From: Candidatus Odinarchaeota archaeon
Lineage (GTDB): Archaea > Asgardarchaeota > Hermodarchaeia > Hermodarchaeales > Hermodarchaeaceae
Assembly (NCBI GenBank): GCA_048885185.1
Contig: JBHLQC010000001.1
Span: forward strand, 1-44,753
Length of the DNA: 44,753 bases
Reading direction: 5' to 3'
Below, piece after piece: positions 23,407-44,097 of this stretch. A program made the translations under genes and the position numbers. Positions within the stretch are counted from its first letter, which is position 1. Every line of letters begins with the position of its first letter. The notes under the pieces were generated by a model. That model was given only the letters and a program-made list of their open reading frames with translations, had not been told where the DNA came from and ran no database searches.

Positions 23407-25800
23407 ATGGGGCAAACTACACAACTAAAAGAAAAACGTTGGCAACCAAAAATCGAGGAAGAAATCCTTGGGATGTGGGCCAAAGAACAACTTTACGCCT
23501 TTCAACGAGACACTAAACGTCCTATCTATTCAATCGACATTCCTCCTCCATACCTAAGTGGACCTTGGCATATTGGTGGTGCTATTCACTACGCTCAAAT
23601 TGATATGATTGCCAGAACGAAACGCATGGAAGGATTTGAGGTTATATTCCCTATGGGATTAGACCGAAACGGACTACCTATTGAGGTTCAGGTGGAAAGA
23701 GCATACAACATCAGTATGCATGATATTCCTCGTCAGGAATTTCTGGATAAATGTGCTGAATTTCTGGACCGTAATGAGAAACTCATTGTTACAATGGCCC
23801 AACGTTTAGGTTTGAGTTGTAACTCATTCAAACACGACGAGATGTATCGTACTGATCATCCAGATTATCGTGCAATTACACAACGCACGTTCATTGAACT
23901 ATACAATCAAGGACTCGTCTATATCGATGATCGCCCCAATAACTGGTGTTCCGAATGCGGAACTACCATCGCAGATGCTGAAGTTGAATACAAAGACATT
24001 CAAACCACCCTTTCAACCCTGAAATTCACTATTGAGGATTCAGGTGAGGAATTACCCATAGCAACTACACGACCTGAACTCCTCTCAGCATGCGCAGCTG
24101 TCCTCGTTAACCCCGATGATGAACGATATCAACATCTTCAAAATAAAACAGCGCTTACACCGTTATACAATAAACCAGTTCCTATCATTCTGCACCACGA
24201 AGCTCGAATTGAATTTGGCACCGGCGTCGTTATGGTTTGTAGTTATGGCGATTATACAGATGTTAGACTATTTCGAGAACTACAGCTCCAACCAATCAAT
24301 GCCCTAGATGCCGATGGGAAAATGACAGAAGCTGCAGGCCCTTACAAATTCATGACTATAAAGGACGCACGAAAAGCAATCCTCGATGACCTCCACAAGA
24401 AAGAACTAGTTCTCAAACAAGAGACAATTTCTCATCGAACTCCCACCTGTTGGCGTAGTCGCAACCCCATTGAATTCATTGCCATGCCCGAATACTATCT
24501 GAAACAAACACCATACCTTGAGGAACTCCGCAATGTCATCGATGAAATGACTTTCTTTCCCACCGAAAACAAGCAGATTCTCATCGATTGGATAAACAGC
24601 GTTAACCGAGACTGGCCTATTAGCCGTCGCCGATTTTATGGCACTGAAATCCCCCTTTGGTATTGTACAAAATGTGACGAGACCATTGTTCCTCCAGTTG
24701 GTCCATATTATCAACCGTGGAAGACTCCCCCACCAGTTAAGAAGTGCCCGAAATGCAGCGCTTCAGATAGTTTCGAAGGTGAAACTCGGACTATGGACAC
24801 CTGGATGGACTCATCCATCAGTTCTCTTATTGTCGCTTTCTACACTAAAGACAATGAACTCTTTCAGCGTCTCTTTCCAGCTAGCATTCGTCCACAGGGT
24901 AAGGATATAGTTCGCACTTGGCTCTTCTATTCAATTTTACGAGTTTACCAGCTTTTCCAGGCTCCCGCCTTCAAATACGTCTGGATCAGCGGGATGGGTC
25001 TTGATGAACATGGAGAACGAATGAGTAAATCCCGGGGAAATATTATTGACCCTAACCCAATGTTCGACCAATATGGCACAGACGCATTACGTCTTTGGGG
25101 TGCTCTTGAAGCCTCTTTGGGTTCTGATTTCCGATTCAGCGAAGGTCGCCTTGCAGGAGCCCATCGATTTCTTACTAAACTCTGGAATATTTCCCGTTTC
25201 ATCTCTGGATTCCCACAAATCAAAGACGAAGACATTGAACTCCAACCAGCTGATCACTGGATTCTCTCCGAACTAAACGACTTAATCAATCGCGCCAGAA
25301 CCGGTTATAGCAAACTCGATTTCATCGTTCCTGCCCGAGAACTACGCACCTTCACTTGGGACCTCTTTGCGAGTCATTACCTTGAACTCGTCAAAGGACG
25401 CGCTTACTCCAAAGAGGATGAACCAGGACGTAACGCCGCATGGTTCACTCTTCATACGATCCTGCATTCCATCCTCAAACTCTTGGCACCGATTTGCCCT
25501 TTCATCACCGAGAAAATTCACCGGACCCTCTATGACACGAACACATCTATCCATAAATTACGATTCCCTGAACCCATTGATGGGATTGAAAAAGACCATC
25601 CCACTGACACCTTAATCCAATTCAACGCTGACCTCTGGAAACACAAAAAAGATCACAAAATGAGCCTCCGTGCGCCTCTCTCAACAGTTTCAGCAACAAA
25701 GACTCTCAAACCCTACGCCGAAGACCTTAAACTCATGCATAACATTGAAACTATCAAATTCACCACAAAGGGCAACACAAAAATACTTCCACAAAAATAA
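23407..25800 (+). CDS. valS: Valyl-tRNA synthetase (class Ia)
   Basis: 797 aa. The HIGH-region reads PPPYLSGPWHIGGAIHY. The editing-domain block is TTRPELLSACAAVLVNPDDERY...GTGVVMVCSYGDYTDV. It also has WPISRRRFYGTEIPLWYC and KMSKSRGN. The Val versus Ile/Leu assignment rests on CP1 block resemblance. Confidence 0.8.
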   Translation: MGQTTQLKEKRWQPKIEEEILGMWAKEQLYAFQRDTKRPIYSIDIPPPYLSGPWHIGGAIHYAQIDMIARTKRMEGFEVIFPMGLDRNGLPIEVQVERAYNISMHDIPRQEFLDKCAEFLDRNEKLIVTMAQRLGLSCNSFKHDEMYRTDHPDYRAITQRTFIELYNQGLVYIDDRPNNWCSECGTTIADAEVEYKDIQTTLSTLKFTIEDSGEELPIATTRPELLSACAAVLVNPDDERYQHLQNKTALTPLYNKPVPIILHHEARIEFGTGVVMVCSYGDYTDVRLFRELQLQPINALDADGKMTEAAGPYKFMTIKDARKAILDDLHKKELVLKQETISHRTPTCWRSRNPIEFIAMPEYYLKQTPYLEELRNVIDEMTFFPTENKQILIDWINSVNRDWPISRRRFYGTEIPLWYCTKCDETIVPPVGPYYQPWKTPPPVKKCPKCSASDSFEGETRTMDTWMDSSISSLIVAFYTKDNELFQRLFPASIRPQGKDIVRTWLFYSILRVYQLFQAPAFKYVWISGMGLDEHGERMSKSRGNIIDPNPMFDQYGTDALRLWGALEASLGSDFRFSEGRLAGAHRFLTKLWNISRFISGFPQIKDEDIELQPADHWILSELNDLINRARTGYSKLDFIVPARELRTFTWDLFASHYLELVKGRAYSKEDEPGRNAAWFTLHTILHSILKLLAPICPFITEKIHRTLYDTNTSIHKLRFPEPIDGIEKDHPTDTLIQFNADLWKHKKDHKMSLRAPLSTVSATKTLKPYAEDLKLMHNIETIKFTTKGNTKILPQK

Positions 25801-31898: not shown

Positions 31899-33632
31899 GT
31901 GGATGAGTTGACCATTTCTCAGGTTAATTCCAATTCAATTTGGTCCCAGTTTCGGGTGTTACAGGAACGAATTGCAGCTTTAGTTAATGTAAAACCTTTA
32001 CCTCGAGTTCGTGATCGAATTACTCAATTACAATTTGCCCCAAAACGGTTGAAATTTGTAGAACCTCGATTTGGTACCACTGAAATACCCTCCGAGAAAG
32101 GATCTCGAAGTGGATGGACGGTTACTCTTTCAGAAGACCTCAAAATAGATTCTCCTCATATTTTATCATGGGTTTTGTGGCGAGAAGCATTTCTCAGCTA
32201 TCTTGTGCCTAATATACGTCAAATTCCGGAAACCGCGGACTTGGGCCTTTATGCAGGTTTAAAATTCGGTGAATATAGCATAGAAGAAAAGAAACTTCTT
32301 TCAGAATTGTGGAGTCGTGTGTCCCCAACACAATACTATTTGTATTACAACTATGATGCGCCTTTCGGGTTTCCCATATTCGACCAAGTGGTTAGCGACT
32401 CCTTCCTTCATCGCGTCCTACTCTGGCTGAACTCTATGCGCCTAAGCAGCTTCCAACCGATCTCTTCCTCCACCTATACCGAGGCCTTAGAGAGATGGAT
32501 GCAGGAAACCCATAACCCCTTAACAAAAACCGAAGTACGAATTCTCAACGCACTTTGTACAATTGAACAGTTCTCTCAGAGCCAATTAGCCAAGAAATTA
32601 AATCTTAGCGATTCCGCAATCAGCCAAGCTCTCAACAGATTATCTCGAAGACACCTGCTCAGGATTTTTTCATTCATCAATCTTCCTTTAATGGGACTAA
32701 TTCCTTTAGAAGTTAAACTTCAAGTTATAGATAGGATACAAAAAAGACGAATTACCACATTACTATCAAAAATCCAATATATTGACTTCATCATCGATAC
32801 CAACCAATTCTTGATATCTAGATTCGTAATACCTCACAATCGTGTAGACGAATTTAAGAACTGGATTTTCAAATTTGCATCTAAAGAAAATCTACCTACA
32901 ATCGATGTGTACCAGGATATGTGTCAACTTTTCCATTGGAATTTTAATACGTATATTCCAGAAAAGGGGTGGCCCACCGATTTTACAGTTCAACTAAATC
33001 ATTTTCAATCATCAATACTTGGAAATCAAGATTCCAGTGAACCACCACTGAAAAGCCACAGCTACTCCTATGATCTCCTCCTTAATGACCAACAAACCTT
33101 CCCAATTAAGCTACGTCAAGAAGATTTTACTTACTTCAGACGCTCATCAGAAATCTTTCGAACAACAGAACGTGTAACACCAAGGCCATCACAAGAGGTT
33201 CGCAAAGCTGGTCTCTTAGAAACAACTCACATGAGCTATCGAAGACGTGTACAAAAACTCGAAAATCAACAAATCAGCATCATGGGAGGATTTTGGTTAC
33301 AGCACATTAATCTCGATACAATGGTTCATCTCCTTATCTTTGAACCTTGGGAGACATCCGAGCAAATAATGAGAGCATTGCAATTATTCCCATTTATTAA
33401 TGGAAGAATCTTAGAAAACGGAAATGGATATGTCCTCATCCAGATACCAAATCAAAATGCTGTTGATACACTTTCTACACTGAGAGAAACCATCGTTGGA
33501 ATGGGGATAGACGTACACATCAGTATTAATCCTGCATGGCAGACCTTAACGGACTTTGAACCACCCTTAAGGTCTTCGAATTATGATTTTAAAAACAGCG
33601 AATGGAAATGGGATGCTCACACTTTACCATAA
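31899..33632 (+). CDS. Uncharacterised 577-aa protein, tandem paralogue of 29732-31474
   Basis: Blocks shared with the paralogue: EPRFG, VLWREAFL, PE..DLGLY, LW..VSP.Q, F.IFD, ALERW. The HTH is EVRILNALCTIEQFSQSQLAKKLNLSDSAISQALNRLSRRHLLRI. It also shares MSYRRRVQKLE and the C-terminal NYDFKNSEWKW. The start codon is GTG. Confidence 0.6.
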   Translation: MDELTISQVNSNSIWSQFRVLQERIAALVNVKPLPRVRDRITQLQFAPKRLKFVEPRFGTTEIPSEKGSRSGWTVTLSEDLKIDSPHILSWVLWREAFLSYLVPNIRQIPETADLGLYAGLKFGEYSIEEKKLLSELWSRVSPTQYYLYYNYDAPFGFPIFDQVVSDSFLHRVLLWLNSMRLSSFQPISSSTYTEALERWMQETHNPLTKTEVRILNALCTIEQFSQSQLAKKLNLSDSAISQALNRLSRRHLLRIFSFINLPLMGLIPLEVKLQVIDRIQKRRITTLLSKIQYIDFIIDTNQFLISRFVIPHNRVDEFKNWIFKFASKENLPTIDVYQDMCQLFHWNFNTYIPEKGWPTDFTVQLNHFQSSILGNQDSSEPPLKSHSYSYDLLLNDQQTFPIKLRQEDFTYFRRSSEIFRTTERVTPRPSQEVRKAGLLETTHMSYRRRVQKLENQQISIMGGFWLQHINLDTMVHLLIFEPWETSEQIMRALQLFPFINGRILENGNGYVLIQIPNQNAVDTLSTLRETIVGMGIDVHISINPAWQTLTDFEPPLRSSNYDFKNSEWKWDAHTLP

Positions 33633-33933: not shown

Positions 33934-35478
33934 TTGTCTGTAGAAGACTCTGATGTTCAATCTGCTATTACGAAACTGCTGAGAGCGGGATTTCAAATCA
34001 GCCCAGCAACATTGCAAATGCTTCAAAAAGTGTCTAACCCCCACCAAATTGTTGAGAAATTTCTCACCTCTGACGTTGTACACCCAACTGACACACCCGT
34101 TCTCGAACCAAGCCATTTTGACATCCCTCAGGAGAAACCATCAGATTCAATCCAAGAAGACCTGCCACAAGAACCCCAAATCCCTCAACTTACTCATCCT
34201 AGATTCCAAGCAGAGGGTGTAAAAGCGAGAATAAAAATCCGTAAGGATCCAACACCTCAATTACAGAGCAAAGGAACTGTAGAAGATTTCGTGTCAAATT
34301 TTCAGGATCGCTATTACCGTTTACGAGATATCATCTCACAACGGGTGGACGGAAAGGGAGTTATTGACATAAATGAGGTGGCAGAGGGAAATAACACTCA
34401 AGAAAAGGGAAAGACTCCCACTGTAAAAATTGTAGGATTAGTCACCAATAAAACTCCAACAAAAAGTGGAAATATTGCGCTCGAATTGGAAGATCCATCT
34501 GGAAGTATCTCTGTAATTGTTCAGCAACGTGATCCAAGCTTGTTTTCAAAGGCGCGTCTTGTGTTACTCGACCAAGCCTTATGCGTTGAGGGAGCTTTGG
34601 TTAGTTCAGAAATGATGATTGCTAATGATCTATTCTTACCAGATATTCCATCAAACAGAAGAAATAATCGAGCGACAGAACCGGTCAGTGCCCTCCTGCT
34701 ATCAGATATTCATTTTGGAAGCCGGAATTTTCTTGAAAAAATATTTCAACGAGTACTTGATTGGCTTCAAGGGAAAGAAGGTGATGAGGAACACGTTGAA
34801 CTGGCTAGCACTGTAAAATATATCGTCATTAATGGTGATCTTGTCGACGGTATAGGAGTCTACCCAAATCAAATTGCAGAAATTACACTCTTTGATCTTG
34901 ATAGTCAATTTGTCGGGCTAACCAAACTTCTTCAACAAATCCCCTCTCACATACATCTCTTAATTGCTCCAGGAAATCATGATGGAGTTCGATTGGCGAT
35001 TCCCCGACCTGCAATCGAAGACCGCTTTTTAGCTCCGTTAAAAGATTCGGGATTACAAGTAGCGTCTCTCGGGTGTCCTTCACACGTGAGCTTGCATGAT
35101 GTGAACTTGTTGATCTACCATGGTGATAGCCTCGTCGATATAATGGCTGCACTTTCAAAACCGGAGTTGGAAGCAAGTTTTGCAGCAATGAGAGAGATGC
35201 TCCGAGGACGCCATCTTGCTCCCATATATGGGAAGAGTACAACAATCGTTGCTGAACCACGAGATTGGCTCGTCATTGATGAGGTACCAGATATTCTTCA
35301 TTGTGGTCATGTCCATGTAACTAGCGTTGGCAGTTACCGAAAAACCCTGATTCTGAATTCAGGAACGTTTCAAAGCCAAACGGATTATCAACGATTGATA
35401 GGTATAGAACCTACACCCGGAATTGTTCCTCTTGTTAATTTGCAAACCCTCAATGTGAAAACATTGAATTTTACTTAG
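33934..35478 (+). CDS. polB: DNA polymerase II (PolD) small subunit DP1
   Basis: 514 aa with an OB-fold segment (VKIVGLVTNKTPTKSGNIALELEDPSG) and calcineurin-like phosphoesterase motifs (LSDIHFGS, NGDLVDG, PGNHD, YHGD, CGHVH). The start codon is TTG. Confidence 0.9.
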   Translation: MSVEDSDVQSAITKLLRAGFQISPATLQMLQKVSNPHQIVEKFLTSDVVHPTDTPVLEPSHFDIPQEKPSDSIQEDLPQEPQIPQLTHPRFQAEGVKARIKIRKDPTPQLQSKGTVEDFVSNFQDRYYRLRDIISQRVDGKGVIDINEVAEGNNTQEKGKTPTVKIVGLVTNKTPTKSGNIALELEDPSGSISVIVQQRDPSLFSKARLVLLDQALCVEGALVSSEMMIANDLFLPDIPSNRRNNRATEPVSALLLSDIHFGSRNFLEKIFQRVLDWLQGKEGDEEHVELASTVKYIVINGDLVDGIGVYPNQIAEITLFDLDSQFVGLTKLLQQIPSHIHLLIAPGNHDGVRLAIPRPAIEDRFLAPLKDSGLQVASLGCPSHVSLHDVNLLIYHGDSLVDIMAALSKPELEASFAAMREMLRGRHLAPIYGKSTTIVAEPRDWLVIDEVPDILHCGHVHVTSVGSYRKTLILNSGTFQSQTDYQRLIGIEPTPGIVPLVNLQTLNVKTLNFT

Positions 35479-36053
35479 AGTTGTTCGAATTCCCAAGATT
35501 CTAGCTGCAACGACTGGAGAACTCGAATAGCTTCATCCTTTTCTAAAATCAAGAATAGTTTCGCCACGTGTTTGCAGAATCGATGAAGTAAACTAACTTT
35601 TCGCCAGTCAGGGCAATTATGAGCAATCCGTCGGCTAGCTTCATCAAGGATGAGAACATAATCTTGAGATCCATGAACCGTAGCCTCCACTTTCAACGGA
35701 TTTTGAGAAACACGGATGAATTCAATAGCCTGATCGTTCATTCCCACTGCACGAGATAAACGGGATGAGCTAACAAATAATCGAAGATAATCACCCAAAT
35801 TTGTCACTGCTGTCTGAGTGGGGATTTCGGTATCAACCACCATTTTTTGAGACAACTTAACAAAACCATTTTCAATACTTATCTGCCCTTCAGATTGAAG
35901 GCGTTCAATGAGTTTAAGTGCCTCCGAAGGAGCCATTTTCCGTATATCAAAAGAAAGAAAAAATACTAACTGCTGAATTGGTACTTGATCTTTACCGAGT
36001 GCACGAAATGCATAATCCACAAGGCGAACTGGATTACGTGGTACACTAAACAT
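35475..36053 (-). CDS. Conserved-looking hypothetical protein with a C-terminal SWIM-like (HxC...CxH) zinc-finger motif
   Basis: 192 aa. The C-terminal HNCPDWRKVSLLHRFCKHV resembles SWIM CSCPDF...CKH with the first Cys replaced by His. It is positioned between DP1 and orc1/cdc6. Confidence 0.5.
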   Translation of the reverse strand: MFSVPRNPVRLVDYAFRALGKDQVPIQQLVFFLSFDIRKMAPSEALKLIERLQSEGQISIENGFVKLSQKMVVDTEIPTQTAVTNLGDYLRLFVSSSRLSRAVGMNDQAIEFIRVSQNPLKVEATVHGSQDYVLILDEASRRIAHNCPDWRKVSLLHRFCKHVAKLFLILEKDEAIRVLQSLQLESWEFEQL

Positions 36054-36075: not shown

Positions 36076-37374
36076 CTATTTATCCGGGGTTGCTGGAACA
36101 TAACTTGAGAGAGCCTTAATACGACTATCTCGTTCTAATACATCTGCAATCATTGTTTTCGGGACACTTAACCGGATAATTTTGGTTCGTCCATATCGTC
36201 CTTTACTTACAACTTTAGCATTAACTACTCCAATAGCATCCAAATCATTGATGAGATCACTAACCCGACGCTGGGTTAAAGGATCCATACCTAACTGTGA
36301 GCAAAAGTCTCCGTACACATCTTGTACCTCTCCTGTAACTGGATGTGGATGTTTGTGACGTTCTAATACATACACAGCATAAAGGACAAGTTTCTGTTGG
36401 ACAGGTAATGTCCGTAGTACTTCAAGAACAGTATCACGTTCAATGCTTAAACGTGCCTTTTCAACATGATCAACTTTTACCTCTTTACTTCCCTCACGTT
36501 CAGCAATTTCTACTGCTACACGAAATAGATCAAGAGCCCGTCGTGCGTCACCTTCTTCACGTGCAGCCAAGGCAGCACATAGGTTGATTACTCCTGGTTC
36601 TTCTAAGATACCATTTTTCAGTCCATGAGAACTTCGACGCCGAAGAATATCTTGTAGTTGTAATGCAGTGTAAGGATGAAAAATGACCTTCTCCTCACTT
36701 AAGCTACTCAACACCCGAGGATCAAGATACTCAGGGAAGCGAAGATCATTGGAGATTCCGATTAAACTGACACGAGCACTCGTAAGATCATAATTAATTC
36801 GAGTCAACTTATAGAGCGTGTCATCACCGCTCTTCAAAACTAAACGGTCGATTTCGTCGAGTACAATAATGGTTAAGAGATCTTGGCTTTCTAGCAACTC
36901 GATCAGGCGTGAATGAACTTCATCAGTTGGCAGCCCTGTAAACGGAACTTTTTGACCCAACTCCGCACAGATGCGCGCCAATACACGATAATCTGTATCC
37001 ACATTCCGGCAATTCAAATATACAGCTTTGAAGGGTAACTGGAGTTCACCAAACTTAGTAGTTAATTCCCGGAGAACATACCGAGTCACTGCTGTTTTTC
37101 CAGTTCCTGGTTTACCATAGACAAAAACATTCGATGGGCGACTCCCCTTCAAGCCCGTCGCTAATATACCTCCGATTTGCGTAATCTGTTCTTCACGATG
37201 GGGAAGGTCATCTGGAACATAAGAATGCCAAAGAACTTTACGATCACGAATAAGAGTTGGACCAGTACTAAAACGTTCGAAAATCCTGTCCAAAGGCCGT
37301 GGGTCATCCATGTGATAGCTGTCCTCCAGGAGGCTCCCATAGGAAATACTAGCGTTTCTTTTGGAAGTGCACAC
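36076..37374 (-). CDS. cdc6: Orc1/Cdc6 replication initiator
   Basis: It has Walker A VYGKPGTGKTA, Walker B IIVLDEIDRL, the sensor block GDARRALDLFRVA, and a C-terminal winged helix. The track start is GTG 37374. ATG 37311 (MDDPRPLDRIF), with GGAGG 12 nt upstream, is more plausible. Confidence 0.95.
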   Translation of the reverse strand: MCTSKRNASISYGSLLEDSYHMDDPRPLDRIFERFSTGPTLIRDRKVLWHSYVPDDLPHREEQITQIGGILATGLKGSRPSNVFVYGKPGTGKTAVTRYVLRELTTKFGELQLPFKAVYLNCRNVDTDYRVLARICAELGQKVPFTGLPTDEVHSRLIELLESQDLLTIIVLDEIDRLVLKSGDDTLYKLTRINYDLTSARVSLIGISNDLRFPEYLDPRVLSSLSEEKVIFHPYTALQLQDILRRRSSHGLKNGILEEPGVINLCAALAAREEGDARRALDLFRVAVEIAEREGSKEVKVDHVEKARLSIERDTVLEVLRTLPVQQKLVLYAVYVLERHKHPHPVTGEVQDVYGDFCSQLGMDPLTQRRVSDLINDLDAIGVVNAKVVSKGRYGRTKIIRLSVPKTMIADVLERDSRIKALSSYVPATPDK

Positions 37375-37556
37375 ACCTCCAATATTAGGGTTTCGCAGAA
37401 ATAGTTCTTATCAACTATTCCTTTCAATAAACAAAGTTTAATTTGTTCACAATTGGCGCGTTACTTGTGAACTTCTATTATCATAAATTGATTTAGAGCT
37501 CGTTTTTCTCGTAAAAACAGCCAAATTTAGTATATTTTCTAATCAACAAACACTCA

Positions 37557-37577
37557 CCCCTTTATTTCCACTGGAAC
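37557..37577 (-). promoter_or_regulatory. Origin recognition box ORB1
   Basis: The plus strand reads cccctttatttccactggaac, which is GTTCCAGTGGAAATAAAGGGG on the minus strand. This matches my memory of the archaeal ORB (TTCCAGTGGAAA dyad plus G-string). Confidence 0.8.
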
Positions 37578-37882
37578 TATCCAATTAAGGCTTAAATTCT
37601 TAGAAATTGTAATGAACCCGTGAAGAAACTGTGAACACCTTCTAACTATGGAGAAATTCCTTGAAATAGAAAAAGAAAACCGGAGATAACGTATTTTACA
37701 TAACTAACCAAAACAATCAGAAGAACGCTTTAAATGATAATAGAACTGAAGCAAGTAGAACCAAATAATTAATCAGTGATGCAACACACTCTCTCTTCAC
37801 ACCGTCACACTTTTATTACTGTGAACACGCCTCTCTAGTGGGGACATGGAGAGCCAGCTAGTCACCAGTGGGTGACCCTCCC

Positions 37883-38338
37883 ATGAAAAAACGGAAACAA
37901 AAGATCACCATCGAAGGACTTACCATCGAAGGAAAAACTTGTGACGTAACTATAACTTTTACAGATGGATTACCCTCTTCCATCACCGAATCTTTGGTCA
38001 CAGCTCTCAGTCAATCCGGCACAGAGGTTCCGGCTCACGAGCCCACAACTGAGATACAATCCCTTGATGATGTGGATTCCTGGACTGTGTTTCAAAAAGT
38101 CCGATATATTACTCTTCGTCACTGTCGTCACGGCTGGTTCACTTCTAAAGATATCCAAGAACTCTATGAAAGATCCTTCCACCCACCTCTACGACTAGCC
38201 ACGGCCTCACAATACCTCAAAAGAATGCATGACAATGGTACTCTTACACGTCGTGGATCAGCTGCCCAACGCGAGTATAGAGTTAACATCGAAGACTTAA
38301 CAGAAGAAATTGCTGCTATCCTGGCTACAAAAGTCTAA
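37883..38338 (+). CDS. Small winged-helix protein encoded inside the origin
   Basis: 151 aa counted from ATG 37883; the track ORF starts at GTG 37868. The C-terminal WFTSKDIQELYE...LATASQYLKRMHDNGTLTRRGSAAQREYRV is wHTH-like. A GGTGA Shine-Dalgarno-like sequence lies 7 nt upstream of the ATG. Confidence 0.6.
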   Translation: MKKRKQKITIEGLTIEGKTCDVTITFTDGLPSSITESLVTALSQSGTEVPAHEPTTEIQSLDDVDSWTVFQKVRYITLRHCRHGWFTSKDIQELYERSFHPPLRLATASQYLKRMHDNGTLTRRGSAAQREYRVNIEDLTEEIAAILATKV

Positions 38339-38470
38339 AACAGATTTTTCAATTCCTTTGTCATATGAATAAAATTATGTACTATAGTTATAAACTTTTT
38401 AAGATTGATCAATTGTAGGTAAATTAACAGGGCCTCAGAGATCATTAGAAAACGGAAAATAAATGTCACT

Positions 38471-38490
38471 CCCCTTTATTTCCACTGGAA
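38471..38490 (-). promoter_or_regulatory. Origin recognition box ORB2
   Basis: The sequence cccctttatttccactggaa is identical over 20 nt to ORB1 and has the same orientation. Confidence 0.8.
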
Positions 38491-38674
38491 GTCGAAGGAC
38501 AAAAAAAGTTTGGTCTTGTTTATATATAATTCGAAGAATCTTCCCCAGTTGTTTTCTATTATTGTTATATTAATACTTTACCTTCTCTAACACGTTTTCT
38601 TTAATAGTATAGAAGCTGTTTTTGCGCATTTTCCACTTATTTGAAAGGGTAACAAAAAATCCGACTAAAAAGAA
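38491..38674. other. Putative duplex unwinding element between inverted ORB2 and ORB3
   Basis: This is a 184-nt non-coding stretch with about 29% G+C by my hand count (54/184). It contains tatatata and A/T runs and is bracketed by inverted ORBs. Confidence 0.6.
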
Positions 38675-38695
38675 GTTCCAGTGGAAATTAAGGGG
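38675..38695 (+). promoter_or_regulatory. Origin recognition box ORB3 (inverted relative to ORB1/2)
   Basis: The plus strand reads gttccagtggaaattaagggg. Confidence 0.8.
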
Positions 38696-38708
38696 TATAC
38701 CTAGTCTC

Positions 38709-39002
38709 CTAAGCTACCAGTTGATAGTATACAGAAGGCCTACCACGTTTACCGTTTCGTTCAACATACTTCTCAACAGTTCCGGAGATCAGTAAATTCA
38801 TTAAAGTATCATAGACAGTTGTTCTTGGAATCCCTGTCCTGACGGTAATTTCTCCACGTGTTAATGCACCTTGGTCTCGTAGTAGGCTAGTAATATGATT
38901 TTTGACATCGCCTACCTCAGGTGGACGAGTAGTTGTTCGGGTACGTTGTTTCGTTTTTTGGGTACTGTGGGATGTTCGTTGGGTGGTTCGGGTAGCAGCC
39001 AT
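38709..39002 (-). CDS. Small TrmB/MarR-like winged-helix protein with a basic T/R/Q-rich N-terminal tail, encoded inside the origin
   Basis: 97 aa. The tail is MAATRTTQRTSHSTQKTKQRTRTTTRPPE. The wHTH follows: LTRGEITVRTGIPRTTVYDTLMNLLISGTVEKYVERNGKRGRPSVYYQL. Confidence 0.65.
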   Translation of the reverse strand: MAATRTTQRTSHSTQKTKQRTRTTTRPPEVGDVKNHITSLLRDQGALTRGEITVRTGIPRTTVYDTLMNLLISGTVEKYVERNGKRGRPSVYYQLVA

Positions 39003-39057
39003 AATACCACAACTCTACGTCTAGATAATTTACGGTTATTTATATTAGTTGTGGATA

Positions 39058-39071
39058 ATTTCCACTGGAAC
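39058..39071 (-). promoter_or_regulatory. Mini-ORB4 (dyad core only, no G-string)
   Basis: The plus strand reads atttccactggaac, which is GTTCCAGTGGAAAT on the minus strand. TATCCAC follows in place of a G-run. Confidence 0.6.
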
Positions 39072-39139
39072 TTAATAAATTCAATGAAATAAATGAGTTT
39101 CAGAAAGTAGAAAAAAAGCGAACAACTAATGAAAAATGC

Positions 39140-41464
39140 TTATTGTATCCTGGATCGAGCGACAAGGGCCTGACCCACTGATGTTCCTGCGTCACCGGGT
39201 GGAACTTTGTTATGAACTAGAAACGTAAGACCTTGGTCTTCAATAGTTGTTCGTATAGTTCTTGTAAGAATCTTATTATCTGCAACTCCTCCGGAAAACC
39301 CAATTTTCGATATTCCTTGTTTTTGAGCTGCTTGAGTAGCAATTTCAGCCAGTGCATATCCAAGTACGCGATGTGCAGCATATGCCAGATCGGGAGCATT
39401 GAAGTCGTATTGAAGGTCCATAATTTGCTTAATGAAATTGCTAGTGTCTAAGATTGTTAAGTTACCTTGTTTTTTCTTGGGAATCTGTAGTTTTATTTTG
39501 GAGTTGGCTGAGCCCGTATTTGCAAAAGATTCGAATCGGATGGCAGGCTCACCTTCGTATGTGCGTGTATGACATACTTGGAAGAGTGCAGAAAGTGAAT
39601 CTAGTACTCTTCCTGTACTTGATGTCAGCGGAGTATTGATTTTCTGGTATGCTTGTTTGAGTGCTATTCTCAGCTCTGATGTACCCTGTGGTAAGGCGTT
39701 TTTTGCAATTCCTTTGAAATGATCATATAATTGGTCCTGTGAATAATGCCTTGACAGAATACCGATTAGCATACGGAGTGGGTAATGAGCAGCAAGATCT
39801 CCACCGGGCATGAGCTGTTGTTCCAGATGACCTACACGCTGGTACTTCTGTGCGTTACCTACAAGGATTTCGCCCCCCCAAATTGTATCATCAGGACCAT
39901 ACCCTGCACCATCGCAACAAATAGCGACGATTTCTTCATCCGCTTTGAGTTGGTGATCAGCTAATAGTGCCGCAAGGTGTGCATGGTGGTGTTGTACCCG
40001 GAAAAGTGGTATTTGGTGTTCATCAGATATTTTTTCGCCATATTGAGTTGTGAGAAAATCAGGATGTAAATCGCAGGCAATAGCATCAAAGGTATTTACT
40101 CGAAGAAGTTGTTGGAGATGTGTGAGGCTTTCTTGTAGAAACTGCATTGTCTCTACTGTATCAATATCACCAATGTGCTGTGTTAGATAGATTCGTTTAT
40201 TGTGATAGATTGCTCCAGTGTTTTTTTCCAACGCTCCAAGAGCGAGAATAGGAGGACCAATATTGGCGGTATCAATAGGTTCAGGAGTATAGCCTCTTGA
40301 ACGACGGACAATAAGTGCTTGGTCATAAATTGGAATGATAACCGAGTCATCACATCGTTGGTATATTGTACGGTCATGTGTGAGGAAGTAGTCAGCCATT
40401 TTCATGAATTGTTCTTGGAAGGTTGTAGCGTGGATGAGGGTCGGTAATCCCGCAGGATTTGCGCTAGTCATCACTAATGCAAGATCATCAAGACCTTCAA
40501 ATAATCGTAAATAGATTCCTGAATATGGAAGCATTACGCCAATTGTATTCAATCCAGGTGCTAGTGCTGTGGATAGTGGGAAAGGAGATTTTTGATCCAA
40601 GACTACTATCGGTCGGCGCCAAGAGATCAAGAGCTTTTCTTCATTCTGATTTACTTTTGCATACTGTCTGGTAGCTTGGAGATCTTTTGACATTATGGCC
40701 AAGGGTTTATTGGGTTTTTTCCGTAATTGGCGAAGTCGTTGAGTTGGTTCTTCAAGACTAGCTCTAACTGCAAGATGTATACCTCCTAAGCCCTTTACGG
40801 CAATAATAGCTCCTTCATTCAGAAGCTTCACTGTTTCTTTGAAAACGTCATCGACAATAACGGGTTCTCCACCAGATCCTAACAGTGAAAATTTGGGGCC
40901 ACAGATGGGGCAACAAATGGTTTGGGCGTTATATCTGCGGTCTAATGGATTATCGAACTCTTTTGTGCAATCTTTGCAGAGGGGAAACTCATTCATGGTT
41001 GTGCGTTCTCGGTCATAGGGTGTGTTAGTGATTGTTGTATAGCGTGGACCACAAATAGCACAACAGGTCATTGGATATTGATAATGTCTCGATTTCGGAC
41101 TAGCCATGTCTTTGATACAATCTTCGCACACAGCGATATCAGCTGGAATTACTGAACCACCTGCCTTCTGTTCGTCTTTAGAAATTCGAATCTGAAAGTT
41201 TGTATATTTCCCGGTTGGGGTTCCCCATATTGTGCGGATGCTGTCAATGACGGCAAGATATGGTTTATCTTTTTCAATGGATTCAATGAATTCAATAATT
41301 CTCTTCTTAGCGCCTTCTACAACTATCAAAACAGCAGAATTTCCAGTATTCAAAACGTATCCTAACAAACTACGCTGTGTGGCTTGAGCATAGATAAATG
41401 GACGGAAGCCTATTCCCTGTACAACGCCGACGACACGAATTTCTGCTTGTTGAATGTTAGTCAT
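39140..41464 (-). CDS. hypF: [NiFe]-hydrogenase maturation carbamoyltransferase HypF
   Basis: It has an acylphosphatase domain (IRVVGVVQGIGFRPFIY), two CxxC zinc-finger pairs (CEDCIKD...CAICGPRYT; CKDCTKE...CPICGPKFS), a YrdC-like domain and a Kae1-like domain. The track ORF extends to 41584, but that extension overlaps the divergent gene. ATG 41464 (MTNIQQAEIRV) fits HypF N-termini. Confidence 0.9.
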   Translation of the reverse strand: MTNIQQAEIRVVGVVQGIGFRPFIYAQATQRSLLGYVLNTGNSAVLIVVEGAKKRIIEFIESIEKDKPYLAVIDSIRTIWGTPTGKYTNFQIRISKDEQKAGGSVIPADIAVCEDCIKDMASPKSRHYQYPMTCCAICGPRYTTITNTPYDRERTTMNEFPLCKDCTKEFDNPLDRRYNAQTICCPICGPKFSLLGSGGEPVIVDDVFKETVKLLNEGAIIAVKGLGGIHLAVRASLEEPTQRLRQLRKKPNKPLAIMSKDLQATRQYAKVNQNEEKLLISWRRPIVVLDQKSPFPLSTALAPGLNTIGVMLPYSGIYLRLFEGLDDLALVMTSANPAGLPTLIHATTFQEQFMKMADYFLTHDRTIYQRCDDSVIIPIYDQALIVRRSRGYTPEPIDTANIGPPILALGALEKNTGAIYHNKRIYLTQHIGDIDTVETMQFLQESLTHLQQLLRVNTFDAIACDLHPDFLTTQYGEKISDEHQIPLFRVQHHHAHLAALLADHQLKADEEIVAICCDGAGYGPDDTIWGGEILVGNAQKYQRVGHLEQQLMPGGDLAAHYPLRMLIGILSRHYSQDQLYDHFKGIAKNALPQGTSELRIALKQAYQKINTPLTSSTGRVLDSLSALFQVCHTRTYEGEPAIRFESFANTGSANSKIKLQIPKKKQGNLTILDTSNFIKQIMDLQYDFNAPDLAYAAHRVLGYALAEIATQAAQKQGISKIGFSGGVADNKILTRTIRTTIEDQGLTFLVHNKVPPGDAGTSVGQALVARSRIQ

Positions 41465-41550
41465 CGGCGTCAACTCCCTTTGAATCGACAGAAGCGAAGT
41501 ATTAATTCTTTTGGAGTTATCATCAAGTAGTATATGCTTTTGGTTAGTGT

Positions 41551-42150
41551 TTGATGATGAGTGAATTTCGTGTCCCAACGCCAAAGGAACTACAAGAACT
41601 CCGAAAGAAAGTTGGTCTCACGCAAGAGGAACTTGCTGCACGTGTTGGGATTAGTCAGTCTTTAGTTGCACGAATTGAAAAGGGCCAGGTGAATCCAAGC
41701 ATTGTAACACTGAAACGAATTCTTAGTGCAATCGAAGATCAAGAGCAGGTTTCTCCAAGTTTACGCAAGCTGTTGCAGTGGAAAGGTCAAACTACAAAGA
41801 TGCAACAATTAATCGGGGTCAGCCCCGATGACAAAGTACGACGTGCAGTATTACTGATGAGGCGTCATGGAATATCACAACTTCCTGTCATTAAAAAGAA
41901 CAAATCTATTGGGTGTATTAGTGAAGGTACTATAATTCGAAAATTAATGGCCATGGATTCACAGAAAGTCTTCTCATTATCAGTAAATGAAATAATGGAA
42001 GAACCTTGTCCATCAATTGATATTAACGAGAGTGTTGAACTTGCGTTCTCTAAAATCGCTTCCGGCAGTGAGGCATTATTGATTGAGGATCAAGGACGTC
42101 CTGTGGGAATCGTCACTAAGATTGATATAATTGCATTTACACGGATATAG
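41551..42150 (+). CDS. XRE-type HTH plus CBS-pair domain regulator
   Basis: 199 aa with the HTH LTQEELAARVGISQSLVARIEKGQVNPS, followed by two CBS motifs (HGISQLPVIK..., ALLIEDQGRPVGIVTKIDI). Confidence 0.8.
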   Translation: MMMSEFRVPTPKELQELRKKVGLTQEELAARVGISQSLVARIEKGQVNPSIVTLKRILSAIEDQEQVSPSLRKLLQWKGQTTKMQQLIGVSPDDKVRRAVLLMRRHGISQLPVIKKNKSIGCISEGTIIRKLMAMDSQKVFSLSVNEIMEEPCPSIDINESVELAFSKIASGSEALLIEDQGRPVGIVTKIDIIAFTRI

Positions 42151-42265
42151 CACTTGACAACATAATAATTTCAATGAATTCAATAAATTTATCTAGTTTT
42201 ATGGTTTTAATACTATCAATAATCCTTATAATGCAGAACCTACATTTCTCCAAAATAACTGAGGC

Positions 42266-43579
42266 GTGATGAAACTGAGTGAGCTGGATCGATTAGTCGA
42301 ACGAACACAAAAATTCGATCAACAAATGCTTTCAAAATGGGGATTCAAAACAGAGAGAATTGAGCTATTTGGTATTGATTCTGATGAGCTATATGTAGTT
42401 CCAGAGCACGAAGCCCTAGCAATAAAGAGAGCCGTTAACTATCTGCGTAATCAAACAGCTAGTGTGGTCGTATCTGGTCCTTTGGGCGCGGGAAAAACCA
42501 CATTTTTAGAAATGATCCAGCAATCATTGAATCGTCTACCAAATATTCGGGCCATAAGACTTGAAGGTGTTAGTTCGGCTGATGCTCTAATTGATGACCT
42601 GGTTCATGCAAACATTGGAGAACAAACCGTTCGTGATTTTTTAATTGACAGAGTTGGTGTTCGTGTCGTTCGCAGTGGTTCAGTTGCTAAACGGCTTTCC
42701 CGTTTACTATTGGCATTAAGAACCGATGCAGAAGAAAATGGAACCTCATATGTTTTCTTAATCGATGAATTTCGACAACTAGAACGCCAAAGACCTGATA
42801 ATCGTGTACGGATTGTAGATACGCTATTACGAATGGTAAACGATAAAACAAGAGATGGACGTCGATACGTTGTACTAGCCCTAGCAGTAATTACTCGTGT
42901 TGGCGAGAGTGCTATTAAGACTCTTGAAATTCTATCATCAGTTGGAGAAACCTTAGGGCATGGAACCAAGTCTGCTATTCGAAGACGGTTCGTTGAAATC
43001 TATGATATGCGTCGAATGAATAAATCAAGTGCAATGAAAGTCATGCTCTGGAGAATAGCCTACCTCAAAGGTGCAATGGATAAACTGCAATCGAATTCAG
43101 AGGATAGTTTAGATTTTGAATCAGATACAGTGAAAGAGTTACTGTATCCCTTTACGGTTGAAGCACTAGAGGGTATTTTCAGTTATTCTGGTGGGAATCC
43201 CGGGATTATGCTTGAGCTATTATTACGCTGTCTTCAGGATGCAGTTCGTGGTGCTGAAGTTCTTGTAAACGATGGTTACACGCTAGATAATGTTCTATCA
43301 GCATATCAAATAGACTTCAACTATGTTCAACGGTTTGTACAAAAAGAGGTAAAACGGGCAAGAGCAGAATTTTCCTCATTTCAAACTGAGCTTCTGAGTT
43401 TCCTTTCTATTGCACGATCACTTGATGAAATTGAAGACTGGCTACAAATTCATGATAGCTCTTGGGAAAACGTATTGGAGGATTTCGATCTATTTGAAAA
43501 ACAAGGTCTTATCTACAGTCCTGAAGCAGGACGCATTCAGGCCACTGAACTATGGACTAAGGGTTCCACATTTGTGTGA
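42266..43579 (+). CDS. Divergent AAA+ P-loop ATPase (Orc1/Cdc6- or ExeA/TniB-like) with a putative C-terminal winged helix
   Basis: 437 aa with Walker A VVSGPLGAGKTT, Walker B YVFLIDEF, and a sensor-2-like SGGNPGIMLELL. The C-terminus reads LEDFDLFEKQGLIYSPEAGRIQ. The likely start is ATG 42269. Confidence 0.6.
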   Translation: MMKLSELDRLVERTQKFDQQMLSKWGFKTERIELFGIDSDELYVVPEHEALAIKRAVNYLRNQTASVVVSGPLGAGKTTFLEMIQQSLNRLPNIRAIRLEGVSSADALIDDLVHANIGEQTVRDFLIDRVGVRVVRSGSVAKRLSRLLLALRTDAEENGTSYVFLIDEFRQLERQRPDNRVRIVDTLLRMVNDKTRDGRRYVVLALAVITRVGESAIKTLEILSSVGETLGHGTKSAIRRRFVEIYDMRRMNKSSAMKVMLWRIAYLKGAMDKLQSNSEDSLDFESDTVKELLYPFTVEALEGIFSYSGGNPGIMLELLLRCLQDAVRGAEVLVNDGYTLDNVLSAYQIDFNYVQRFVQKEVKRARAEFSSFQTELLSFLSIARSLDEIEDWLQIHDSSWENVLEDFDLFEKQGLIYSPEAGRIQATELWTKGSTFV

Positions 43580-43960: not shown

Positions 43961-44097
43961 AGAGTATAAACATAAATATTTTCAATAAAATTAATGAAAT
44001 TATTGAATTCATTCCCTTCAGTTATTTTTCTTTAGTTTCACTTTTAGGGAATCTGCTGCTTATGTTTAATTAGTGGGTGAGTTCCGGAGGCAGCAAA

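Follow-up and report, generated by a model that had tools for sequence, protein, structure and literature searches.

Initiation of DNA replication in archaea is usually described as the work of the initiator Orc1 alone, bound to origin recognition boxes (ORBs). In a 44.7-kb stretch of a genome labelled Candidatus Odinarchaeota archaeon (contig JBHLQC010000001.1, positions 1 to 44,753; the whole stretch analysed here is referred to as the window), two small genes, called geneA and geneB below, lie among the ORBs of a presumed replication origin next to an orc1/cdc6 gene, and both encode winged-helix proteins. This arrangement raises the questions of whether the origin is genuine and whether the two genes take part in its control or only reside there. 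The region at 37.3-39.1 kb is very probably the chromosomal origin region of a Hermod/Thor-type Asgard archaeon. As for the two genes, the evidence tips, if not by much, towards an explanation in which the ORBs of an Orc1-dependent origin are distributed over three spacers, GeneA acts as a control factor of the origin and of orc1, and geneB is itself controlled by Orc1.

A probable ORB-type origin next to orc1

Four perfect copies of the 12-mer TTTCCACTGGAA are present in the window, at positions 37565, 38479, 38676 (- strand) and 39059, all of them within 37565-39070 and none elsewhere, while about 0.005 perfect matches would be expected in 2 x 44.7 kb. ORB1, ORB2 and ORB3 have the extended form CCCCTT(T/A)ATTTCCACTGGAA, comprising the canonical archaeal ORB core and a G-string, and ORB4 is a mini-ORB without the G-string. 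ORB1 and ORB2 have an identical 20-mer in common. ORB2 and ORB3 form an inverted pair (20 nucleotides (nt), 95% complementarity) with distal G-strings, and 185 nt of about 30% GC lie between them. In a nearest-neighbour scan, the segments 38367-38426 (z = 3.9) and 38552-38611 (z = 3.6) belonged to the four 60-mers of lowest stability in the window, and both fall in the geneA-geneB spacer. The sign of the GC skew switches at about 38-40 kb, in a short window where skew is confounded with gene strand. The base composition of the region is the same as that of its flanks. A search of the spacers against Rfam revealed no meaningful RNA gene; the top match, to a microRNA-precursor model, lay on the inverted ORB pair (E 0.15).

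The region thus has the adjacent orc1 gene, the ORB repeats with a G-string, and the inverted pair around an AT-rich, easily melted segment that characterise Orc1/Cdc6-dependent origins of the ORB type. Its identification as an origin is supported by the confinement of the ORBs to this region, the inverted pair on AT-rich DNA of low stability, and the proximity of orc1 and the gene for the small subunit DP1 of DNA polymerase D (PolD); the skew switch agrees with it but, over so short a stretch, is weak evidence. The order ORB1-geneA-ORB2-duplex-unwinding element-ORB3-geneB-ORB4, which an earlier sequence-only reading had proposed for an origin of this type, was recovered in full, with four perfect TTTCCACTGGAA copies, the genes between them, and the core next to orc1/cdc6. 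This layout is real and far above chance expectation.

Annotation of the window was based on Pfam and NCBIfam profile scans. In the following list of features, IG1 to IG3 are the intergenic spacers, and promoter and terminator positions were inferred from archaeal BRE-TATA (BRE, transcription factor B recognition element) and oligo-T rules.

33934-35478 (+): gene for PolD small subunit DP1.
35475-36053 (-): DUF2240-like gene, 192 amino acids (aa), with weak resemblance to DUF2240 at the N terminus (24.8 bits) and a faint SWIM-like match at the C terminus.
36076-37311 (-): orc1/cdc6 initiator gene (NCBIfam NF001625, 527 bits; Pfam Cdc6_C and Cdc6_lid), with the start codon ATG at 37311.
IG1: orc1-geneA spacer, 571 nt.
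37355-37366 (+): ORB0, a degenerate mini-ORB TTTCTTTTGGAA with 3 mismatches, over the predicted orc1 transcription start; conserved in the clade.
37382-37395 (-): predicted orc1 BRE/TATA CGAAAccCTAATAT, a conserved block assigned from the archaeal BRE-TATA consensus.
37444-37473: two TTCACA/GTGAAC sites (37444-37450 and 37467-37473), upstream of the orc1 promoter together with a conserved GGCGCG block.
37556-37578 (+): ORB1, a full ORB including the G-string and oriented like ORB2.
37630-37637 (+): TGTGAACA site, 65 nt past ORB1.
37796-37828: predicted geneA promoter, with inverted TTCACAC / TGTGAACAC arms around the TATA box TTTTATTA (37811-37818); near-invariant in the clade.
37883-38338 (+): geneA.
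IG2: geneA-geneB spacer, 370 nt.
38380-38400 (+): palindrome-like (T)ACTATAGTTATAAAC followed by a T5 run; conserved, maybe the geneA terminator and/or a protein-binding site.
38471-38490 (+): ORB2, a full ORB, G-string distal to the core.
38491-38673: AT-rich core, candidate duplex-unwinding element, with conserved TCGAAGAA (two copies), TATTAATA, TTGCGCATT and GGTAACA; 38552-38611 within it is the 4th least stable 60-mer.
38674-38696 (-): ORB3, inverted with respect to ORB2, 12 nt from the geneB stop codon.
38709-39002 (-): geneB, 97 aa.
IG3: geneB-hypF spacer, 137 nt, of which about 95 nt are almost invariant in the clade.
39007-39054 (-): predicted geneB promoter, with the inverted repeat CCACAACT (39007-39014) / AGTTGTGG around the TATA-like TAATATAAATAA (39036-47); near-invariant in the clade.
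39056-39073 (+): ORB4, a mini-ORB that makes up with ORB3 a perfect inverted repeat of 18 nt; directly upstream of the geneB BRE/TATA and 4 nt from the AGTTGTGG box.
39075-39085: AATGAATTCAAT-like palindrome adjoining ORB4; exact in most relatives and found also upstream of other genes of the window.
39140-41584 (-): hypF.

Several candidate features were discarded. An upstream GTG at 37374 was rejected as the start of orc1, since the sequence there is unconserved and rich in indels, and a mechanically called open reading frame (ORF) at 38622-38795 (+), which runs over ORB3, shows no coding conservation. Two near-ORBs with 1 mismatch each (32930-32941 and 41773-41784) lie within coding regions; the second is also present in locus L002, and they were taken as the result of chance or coding conservation.

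Conservation of the layout in related Asgard loci

Fifteen genome loci and four more reached via divergent homologues (designated by L numbers) were compared with the window. Long contigs with this locus include JBHLMG010000001.1 (333 kb), JAEOTO010000032.1 (271 kb) and CAYFXC010000001.1 (251 kb). The order DP1, DUF2240-like gene, orc1, ORB1, geneA, ORB2, core, ORB3, geneB, ORB4, hypF, helix-turn-helix (HTH)/CBS gene and ATPase gene is the same in all of them as far as their contigs extend, apart from ORB3 in L013, and this includes loci with identities as low as 48-57% for GeneA and 55-58% for DP1. The spacers vary little in length (564-601 nt for IG1, mostly 360-407 nt for IG2, and 135-145 nt for IG3), and the distance from the start of ORB2 to that of ORB3 is 196-197 nt in 16 of 17 loci and 332 nt in L022. 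ORB0 has 2 mismatches in L022-L024, and a full ORB is found at the equivalent place in the Ranarchaeia locus L025. The palindrome TTTATTACTATAGTAATAAA, of which the window has a single copy (38380-38395), occurs 3-4 times in the 688-nt IG2 of L022.

Both genes are real and conserved: 59 homologues of geneA (48-97% identity) and 68 of geneB (58-97% identity) were found, in each case with invariant blocks, conserved start codons and no frame disruptions. The named homologues all carry Asgard labels (Hermod-, Thor-, Hod-, Odin- and 'Promethearchaeota'), with the exception of one Bathyarchaeota-labelled geneB. In every locus that covers the region, the ORFs are retained together with the ORBs. Since relatives that keep the ORBs also keep both ORFs, the embedding of two genes in this origin is not refuted by loss of the ORFs.

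GeneA represents a wider archaeal protein family

In the AlphaFold2 model of GeneA, a beta-hairpin and a helix at the N terminus (residues 6-43) are joined by a disordered linker to a winged helix (residues 66-135) with a predicted local distance difference test score (pLDDT) >90. The C-terminal winged helix-turn-helix (wHTH) ascribed to GeneA from sequence is borne out by this model, as is the winged-helix nature of both proteins, the wHTH of GeneB being predicted at pLDDT >90 as well. GeneA has no Pfam, NCBIfam or PHROGs family match. Foldseek and hidden Markov model searches against the PDB, and Foldseek searches against BFVD, returned generic winged-helix matches only for both proteins, and for this reason membership in MarR/ArsR and AspA was rejected. 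GeneA could not be placed among the MarR/ArsR/PadR proteins, its Foldseek matches having E values of 1.5e-3 or weaker and TM scores of about 0.35-0.4, and the C-terminal winged helices of Cdc6, ORC1 and Cdt1 matched no higher than dozens of MarR/ArsR/PadR regulators.

An exhaustive profile search showed that the geneA orthologue group is a single 50%-identity cluster and revealed a further 272 representatives, more distant but built from the same two modules. The hallmarks of this family, all present in the window's GeneA, are a length of about 135-165 aa, an N-terminal KIxI..G.K.TLT.EG module, and, at the C terminus, a winged helix with the pattern GWFTS...ST.STYL.R...RRGS....EY. Named members belong to Ranarchaeia, Lokiarchaeota, Odinarchaeia, Helarchaeota, Nezhaarchaeales, Syntropharchaeia, Methanocellales and 'Halobacteriota', and the family adjoins orc1 in five Asgard lineages.

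The arrangement around orc1 varies between these lineages. In Ranarchaeia L025, the homologue is divergent from an orc1 with 44% identity to that of the window, and the spacer carries an inverted ORB pair and GTGAACAC sites. In Odinarchaeia L028, orc1 is followed by a divergent geneA-like gene and then, 66 nt downstream on the same strand, by a geneB-like gene (51% identity over 70 residues), which links geneA to geneB; an inverted ORB pair with 198-nt spacing is located 1.2 kb farther along. The segment 3448-4094 of this locus comprises an inverted ORB pair with G-strings, then a 99-aa gene (MKKIIYVYDV..., no Pfam match), and then a third ORB. The Lokiarchaeota and Helarchaeota loci (L027, L029) have the homologue and orc1 in tail-to-tail orientation with 1-8 nt between them, and ORBs upstream of orc1. 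A metagenome scan with the LSTVSTYL subfamily (alignment A5) yielded 80 loci, 43 of which had at least 1.3 kb upstream; for this subfamily, orc1 was divergent in 41 of the 43, with spacers of 547-923 nt, and DP1 was found beyond orc1 in 27 of the 80.

GeneA therefore represents a previously undescribed family of archaeal two-module winged-helix proteins of about 150 aa, usually encoded divergently from orc1 across the origin. In the literature that was consulted, no description of this family or of the replication origin architecture of Asgard archaea was found.

A sequence motif that accompanies the GeneA family

In 46 orc1-geneA spacers, TTCACA/TGTGAA occurs at 5.57 per kb, as compared to 0.73 per kb in the rest of the same loci (7.6-fold). 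An unbiased k-mer count, which also recovered ORB variants (TTCCAGTAGAA) and G-strings as shared, ranked TTCACAA/TTGTGAA first among the 7-mers in the number of spacers that contain it (46 of 46). IG1 of the window contains 5 copies of the motif versus 0.36 expected; GTKAACA is depleted window-wide, and 3 of its 7 copies are in IG1. Conserved GT(G/T)AACA / TTCACA elements of IG1 are located at 37444, 37467, 37543, 37630, 37796 and 37820. The copies at 37796 and 37820 are inverted around the geneA TATA box (TTCACAC-cGTCACAC-TTTTATTA-c-TGTGAACAC), and inverted copies likewise bracket the TATA box in L026; these copies would form an autoregulatory operator. An order that recurs across lineages runs from an ORB to a first site (after about 68 nt), a second site (after about 97 nt) and the gene (after about 40 nt); in the window, 65 nt separate ORB1 from TGTGAA.

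The motif is also found upstream of family members which are not located beside orc1, with 8 copies versus 0.2 expected in L018 and 3 versus 0.55 in L016. To judge from these loci, it is the protein family, and not orc1, that the motif accompanies, and because it marks family members away from orc1 as well, it was assigned to GeneA-type proteins. Co-occurrence of motif and family is established; the pairing of protein and site is inferred from it, and we regard binding of GeneA to the TGTGAA sites as fairly likely.

GeneB and possible transcription into the core

The description of GeneB as a basic T/R/Q-rich tail joined to a TrmB-like wHTH was confirmed by a match to the TrmB wHTH domain (Pfam PF01978, 29.2 bits versus a cut-off of 25.6) and by the AlphaFold2 model, in which a disordered T/R/Q/K-rich tail (residues 1-29) precedes the wHTH (residues 30-97). 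Matches to NCBIfam Lrs14 (25.1 bits versus a cut-off of 90) and Sta1 (21.8 bits versus 80) were below threshold, and PHROGs gave weak matches only (E 3.6e-4 or weaker). GeneB is thus a small TrmB/Lrs14-like protein with a basic tail, limited to the clade and an Odin relative. In the tail (MAATRTTQRTSHSTQKTKQRTRTT...), M1, A2, R5, Q8, K16 and R20 are conserved; its T/R/K/Q-rich makeup is loosely like that of histone tails, a likeness of composition.

Convergent transcription of both genes into the unwinding element, as the sequence-only reading had it, is plausible for geneB and not for geneA. The stop codon of geneB is only 12 nt from ORB3. Oligo-T runs on the geneB strand begin only past ORB3, at 38668-38672 and then at 38655-38660, of which the latter is conserved; they fall just within the AT-rich core, and the geneB transcript probably crosses ORB3 and ends at the core edge. 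Downstream of geneA, T5 runs are present at 38345-38349 and 38396-38400, 70-125 nt before ORB2, of which only the second, 70 nt before ORB2, is conserved. Because of these predicted terminators, transcription of geneA need not enter the core.

Since the predicted geneB promoter abuts ORB4, geneB would probably be controlled by Orc1. Its product would be the best candidate for binding the palindromes in IG2 and IG3, where the candidate blocks (within 38339-38708 and 39003-39140) are ACTATAGT, TCGAAGAA, TGCGCA and CCACAACT/AGTTGTGG.

Comparison with known systems

The oriC1 of Sulfolobus, Aeropyrum and Pyrococcus shares with the window an adjacent orc1, the TTCCAGTGGAAA consensus with a G-string, an inverted pair on an AT-rich element, and extra outer ORBs (PMC12141716); ORB-directed MCM loading by Orc1 is described for Sulfolobus oriC1 (PMC12141716). 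In contrast to oriC1, the ORBs of the window are spread over three spacers split by two protein-coding genes, the outer ones coincide with promoters, and the core has conserved non-ORB blocks of its own.

Origins with internal genes, which the sequence-only reading contrasted with the compact intergenic origins of Sulfolobus and Pyrococcus, have a precedent in haloarchaea, where ORBs are present in both intergenic regions flanking orc genes, as in the oriC2D region of Haloarcula hispanica (PMC3528665, PMC3936714). The region of oriC2-cdc6E and the ORB-rich oriC2D downstream of it resembles the window in having a gene between ORB clusters and outlying ORBs that are regulatory by titration (PMC3936714, PMC3528665). 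However, the embedded gene in H. hispanica is that of the initiator, while the window has two small winged-helix genes embedded and one ORB in each outer spacer. The oapABC genes of haloarchaea likewise form a conserved cluster divergent from orc1 across a canonical origin (PMC7002104), but they encode a small GTPase (OapA/ArvA), a DUF2073 protein (OapB) and a DUF2072 protein (OapC) (PMC10927574), none of which is a DNA-binding winged helix, and no cognate origin motif is known for them. Pfam scans of geneA and geneB found no GTPase, DUF2073 or DUF2072 domain, so that the likeness to oapABC is one of position only.

The Sulfolobus UBP/ucm system also involves a sequence-specific accessory DNA-binding protein with a short motif in origins beside ORBs (PMC12141716). 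UBP differs from GeneA in its fold, a beta-rich saddle and not a winged helix, in the location of its gene, which is elsewhere while geneA is at the origin, and in having hundreds of sites; the candidate GeneA sites lie beside ORB1 and promoters and not in the ORB2-ORB3 core. WhiP/Cdt1 was a further comparison suggested from sequence, and a winged-helix gene next to an origin is indeed a shared trait (PMC4010727). The resemblance goes no further than generic winged-helix structure: there is no sequence similarity and no PDB sequence match, the Cdt1 C-terminal domain ranks 38 among the Foldseek matches of GeneA (E 0.014), and GeneA and GeneB each have a single winged helix, not a tandem, so that membership in WhiP/Cdt1 was rejected. 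With TrmB, Lrs14 and Sta1, GeneB shares the TrmB-type wHTH above the Pfam cut-off and, in the case of Lrs14 and Sta1, its size; it differs in scoring far below the NCBIfam cut-offs, in the absence of a TrmB sugar-binding domain, in its conserved T/R/Q/K-rich tail, and in its fixed position between ORB3 and ORB4.

Proposed mechanism and alternative explanations

In the favoured explanation, Orc1 would bind ORB2 and ORB3, load MCM and unwind the AT-rich core, which would be the most likely loading site. ORB0, ORB1 and ORB4 coincide with the regulatory regions of orc1, geneA and geneB and would couple the expression of these genes to Orc1 occupancy, or titrate Orc1. GeneA would bind the TGTGAA array, whose sites lie upstream of the promoter of orc1, flank ORB1 on either side and surround the TATA box of geneA. 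It would thereby repress geneA and modulate the expression of orc1, the occupancy of ORB1 by Orc1, or both. An effect of either protein on initiation as such is possible, if somewhat doubtful.

Several observations weigh against this explanation. The Loki and Hel loci have no TTCACA upstream of the geneA homologue. In the window, none of the TTCACA sites falls between ORB2 and ORB3, which makes action of GeneA at the presumed unwinding core unlikely. Locus L013 has no recognisable ORB3, and its contig ends too near geneB for ORB4 to be assessed. The 99-aa gene between the ORBs of L028 is unrelated to geneA and geneB, which may mean that embedding is unspecific, and three family loci from methanogen-type lineages, including Methanocellales, have no orc1 linkage. 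Finally, oapABC is equally conserved opposite orc1 in haloarchaea, yet OapA is a vesiculation GTPase and the mutants have no assigned replication role (PMC7002104, PMC10927574); because of this precedent, position alone is not proof of function.

It is on the oapABC precedent (PMC7002104, PMC10927574) that one alternative draws: geneA and geneB could be ordinary small transcription factors whose position is kept for reasons other than initiation, such as early-replication dosage or co-regulation, with ORB1 and ORB4 serving only as autoregulatory or titration sites of Orc1. Titration of the initiator by outlying ORBs in H. hispanica oriC2D (PMC3936714), the purely generic winged-helix matches of both proteins and the family members without orc1 linkage are in line with it. 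Such bystander genes would, however, hardly account for putative GeneA sites interleaved with ORB1 and the orc1 promoter at spacings conserved across distant lineages, for orc1 linkage in 41 of 43 loci, or for a geneB promoter fused to ORB4 and a geneB 3' end fused to ORB3 in all clade members except L013, and we consider this alternative rather unlikely. A little less unlikely is the presence of two origin modules, an ancestral one in IG1 (ORB0-ORB1) and a clade-specific second or relocated one in IG2 (ORB2-ORB3), with geneA simply between them. Because other lineages (Ranarchaeia L025 and many metagenome loci) have an inverted ORB pair inside the orc1-geneA spacer, IG1 looks like an ancestral origin with a decayed ORB0; the conserved degenerate ORB0 stands 210 nt from ORB1 with DNA of 22-34% GC between them, and the 20-mer shared by ORB1 and ORB2 also fits. 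Two adjacent origins, as the sequence-only reading had suggested, thus gain support from other lineages, but in the window ORB0 has 3 mismatches and no G-string, while ORB2 and ORB3 are perfect, inverted and at fixed spacing. The two-module reading is compatible with the favoured explanation and does not exclude it.

The remaining alternatives give the genes another origin or another task. That the region was captured from a plasmid or virus as a replication module with its own winged-helix accessory genes finds support in Sulfolobus oriC3-whiP, for which capture has been proposed (PMC4010727), and in Stf76, F93 and AspA, small winged-helix proteins common on archaeal mobile elements, among the structural matches. 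Against this, IMG/VR contains no relatives of the geneA orthologue group or of the wider subfamily, PLSDB has no plasmid match to geneA, PHROGs matches are absent for geneA and weak for geneB, no integrase was found, the composition equals that of the flanks, and the synteny of PolD-DP1, orc1 and HypF is stable across a deep clade; the captured extrachromosomal origin once envisaged for this region is thus highly improbable. GeneB could instead be an origin-proximal centromere-binding or chromatin protein, like AspA or Lrs14, that organises or segregates the origin region instead of regulating initiation. Foldseek did match it to AspA (30% identity over 63 residues) and AbfR2/Lrs14, its basic disordered tail suits non-specific DNA binding, and several conserved palindromes in IG2 and IG3 have no assigned protein; on the other hand, the AspA and AbfR2 scores are no better than those of many other winged-helix proteins, no ParA/ParB partner gene is nearby, and the NCBIfam Lrs14 score (25 bits) is far from its cut-off of 90, which makes this task of GeneB improbable.

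Neighbouring genes and a recurrent palindrome

The AATGAATTCAAT palindrome has 15 matches at no more than 1 mismatch in the window versus 5.2 expected, a number reached in 0 of 100 shuffles. Copies at 39075-39085, 41285-41296, 42173-42184, 44002-44013, 24469-24480 and 35716-35726 include those that adjoin ORB4 and precede the ATPase gene and the gene at 44077. The palindrome may be a shared operator of some regulator, with the adjacent HTH_3-CBS protein and GeneB as candidates.

The AAA+ ATPase gene at 42266-43579 (+) encodes 437 aa (Pfam ATPase_2, 35 bits) and keeps its synteny with the origin in all related loci. Its top PDB sequence match was human ORC4 (E 0.0075), with a weak match to TIGR02928 Orc1/Cdc6 (E 0.025). 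The gene, which lies 3 kb from the origin, may code for a divergent paralogue of the Orc/Cdc6 type. The ORF of the HTH_3 and CBS-domain regulator (41551-42150, +), taken from the first (TTG) start as listed, overlaps the 5' end of the divergent hypF ORF by 34 nt; both genes are members of the conserved block flanking the origin. The DUF2240-like gene sits between orc1 and PolD-DP1 in Thor/Hermod-type loci and is a possible further member of a replication gene island.

Significance of the origin architecture

The origin itself is of the known ORB/Orc1 kind, and the locus provides a concrete, conserved origin architecture for one Asgard clade. It also offers a testable candidate for a new origin-associated factor, an uncharacterised family encoded beside orc1 in several Asgard classes and many metagenomic lineages, with a predicted motif among the ORBs. 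If the linkage is only positional, the locus would follow oapABC as the second clear example of genes retained at archaeal origins for unexplained reasons. One could also hypothesise, with considerable reserve, that the GeneA family is a widespread origin-binding accessory factor, which would act at TGTGAA sites beside ORBs and license, time or limit initiation together with Orc1, with GeneB as its partner on the core in Thor, Hermod and Odin lineages. If true, the GeneA family would be comparable in function to bacterial modulators of the SeqA/IHF/DiaA type or to a Cdt1-like co-factor.

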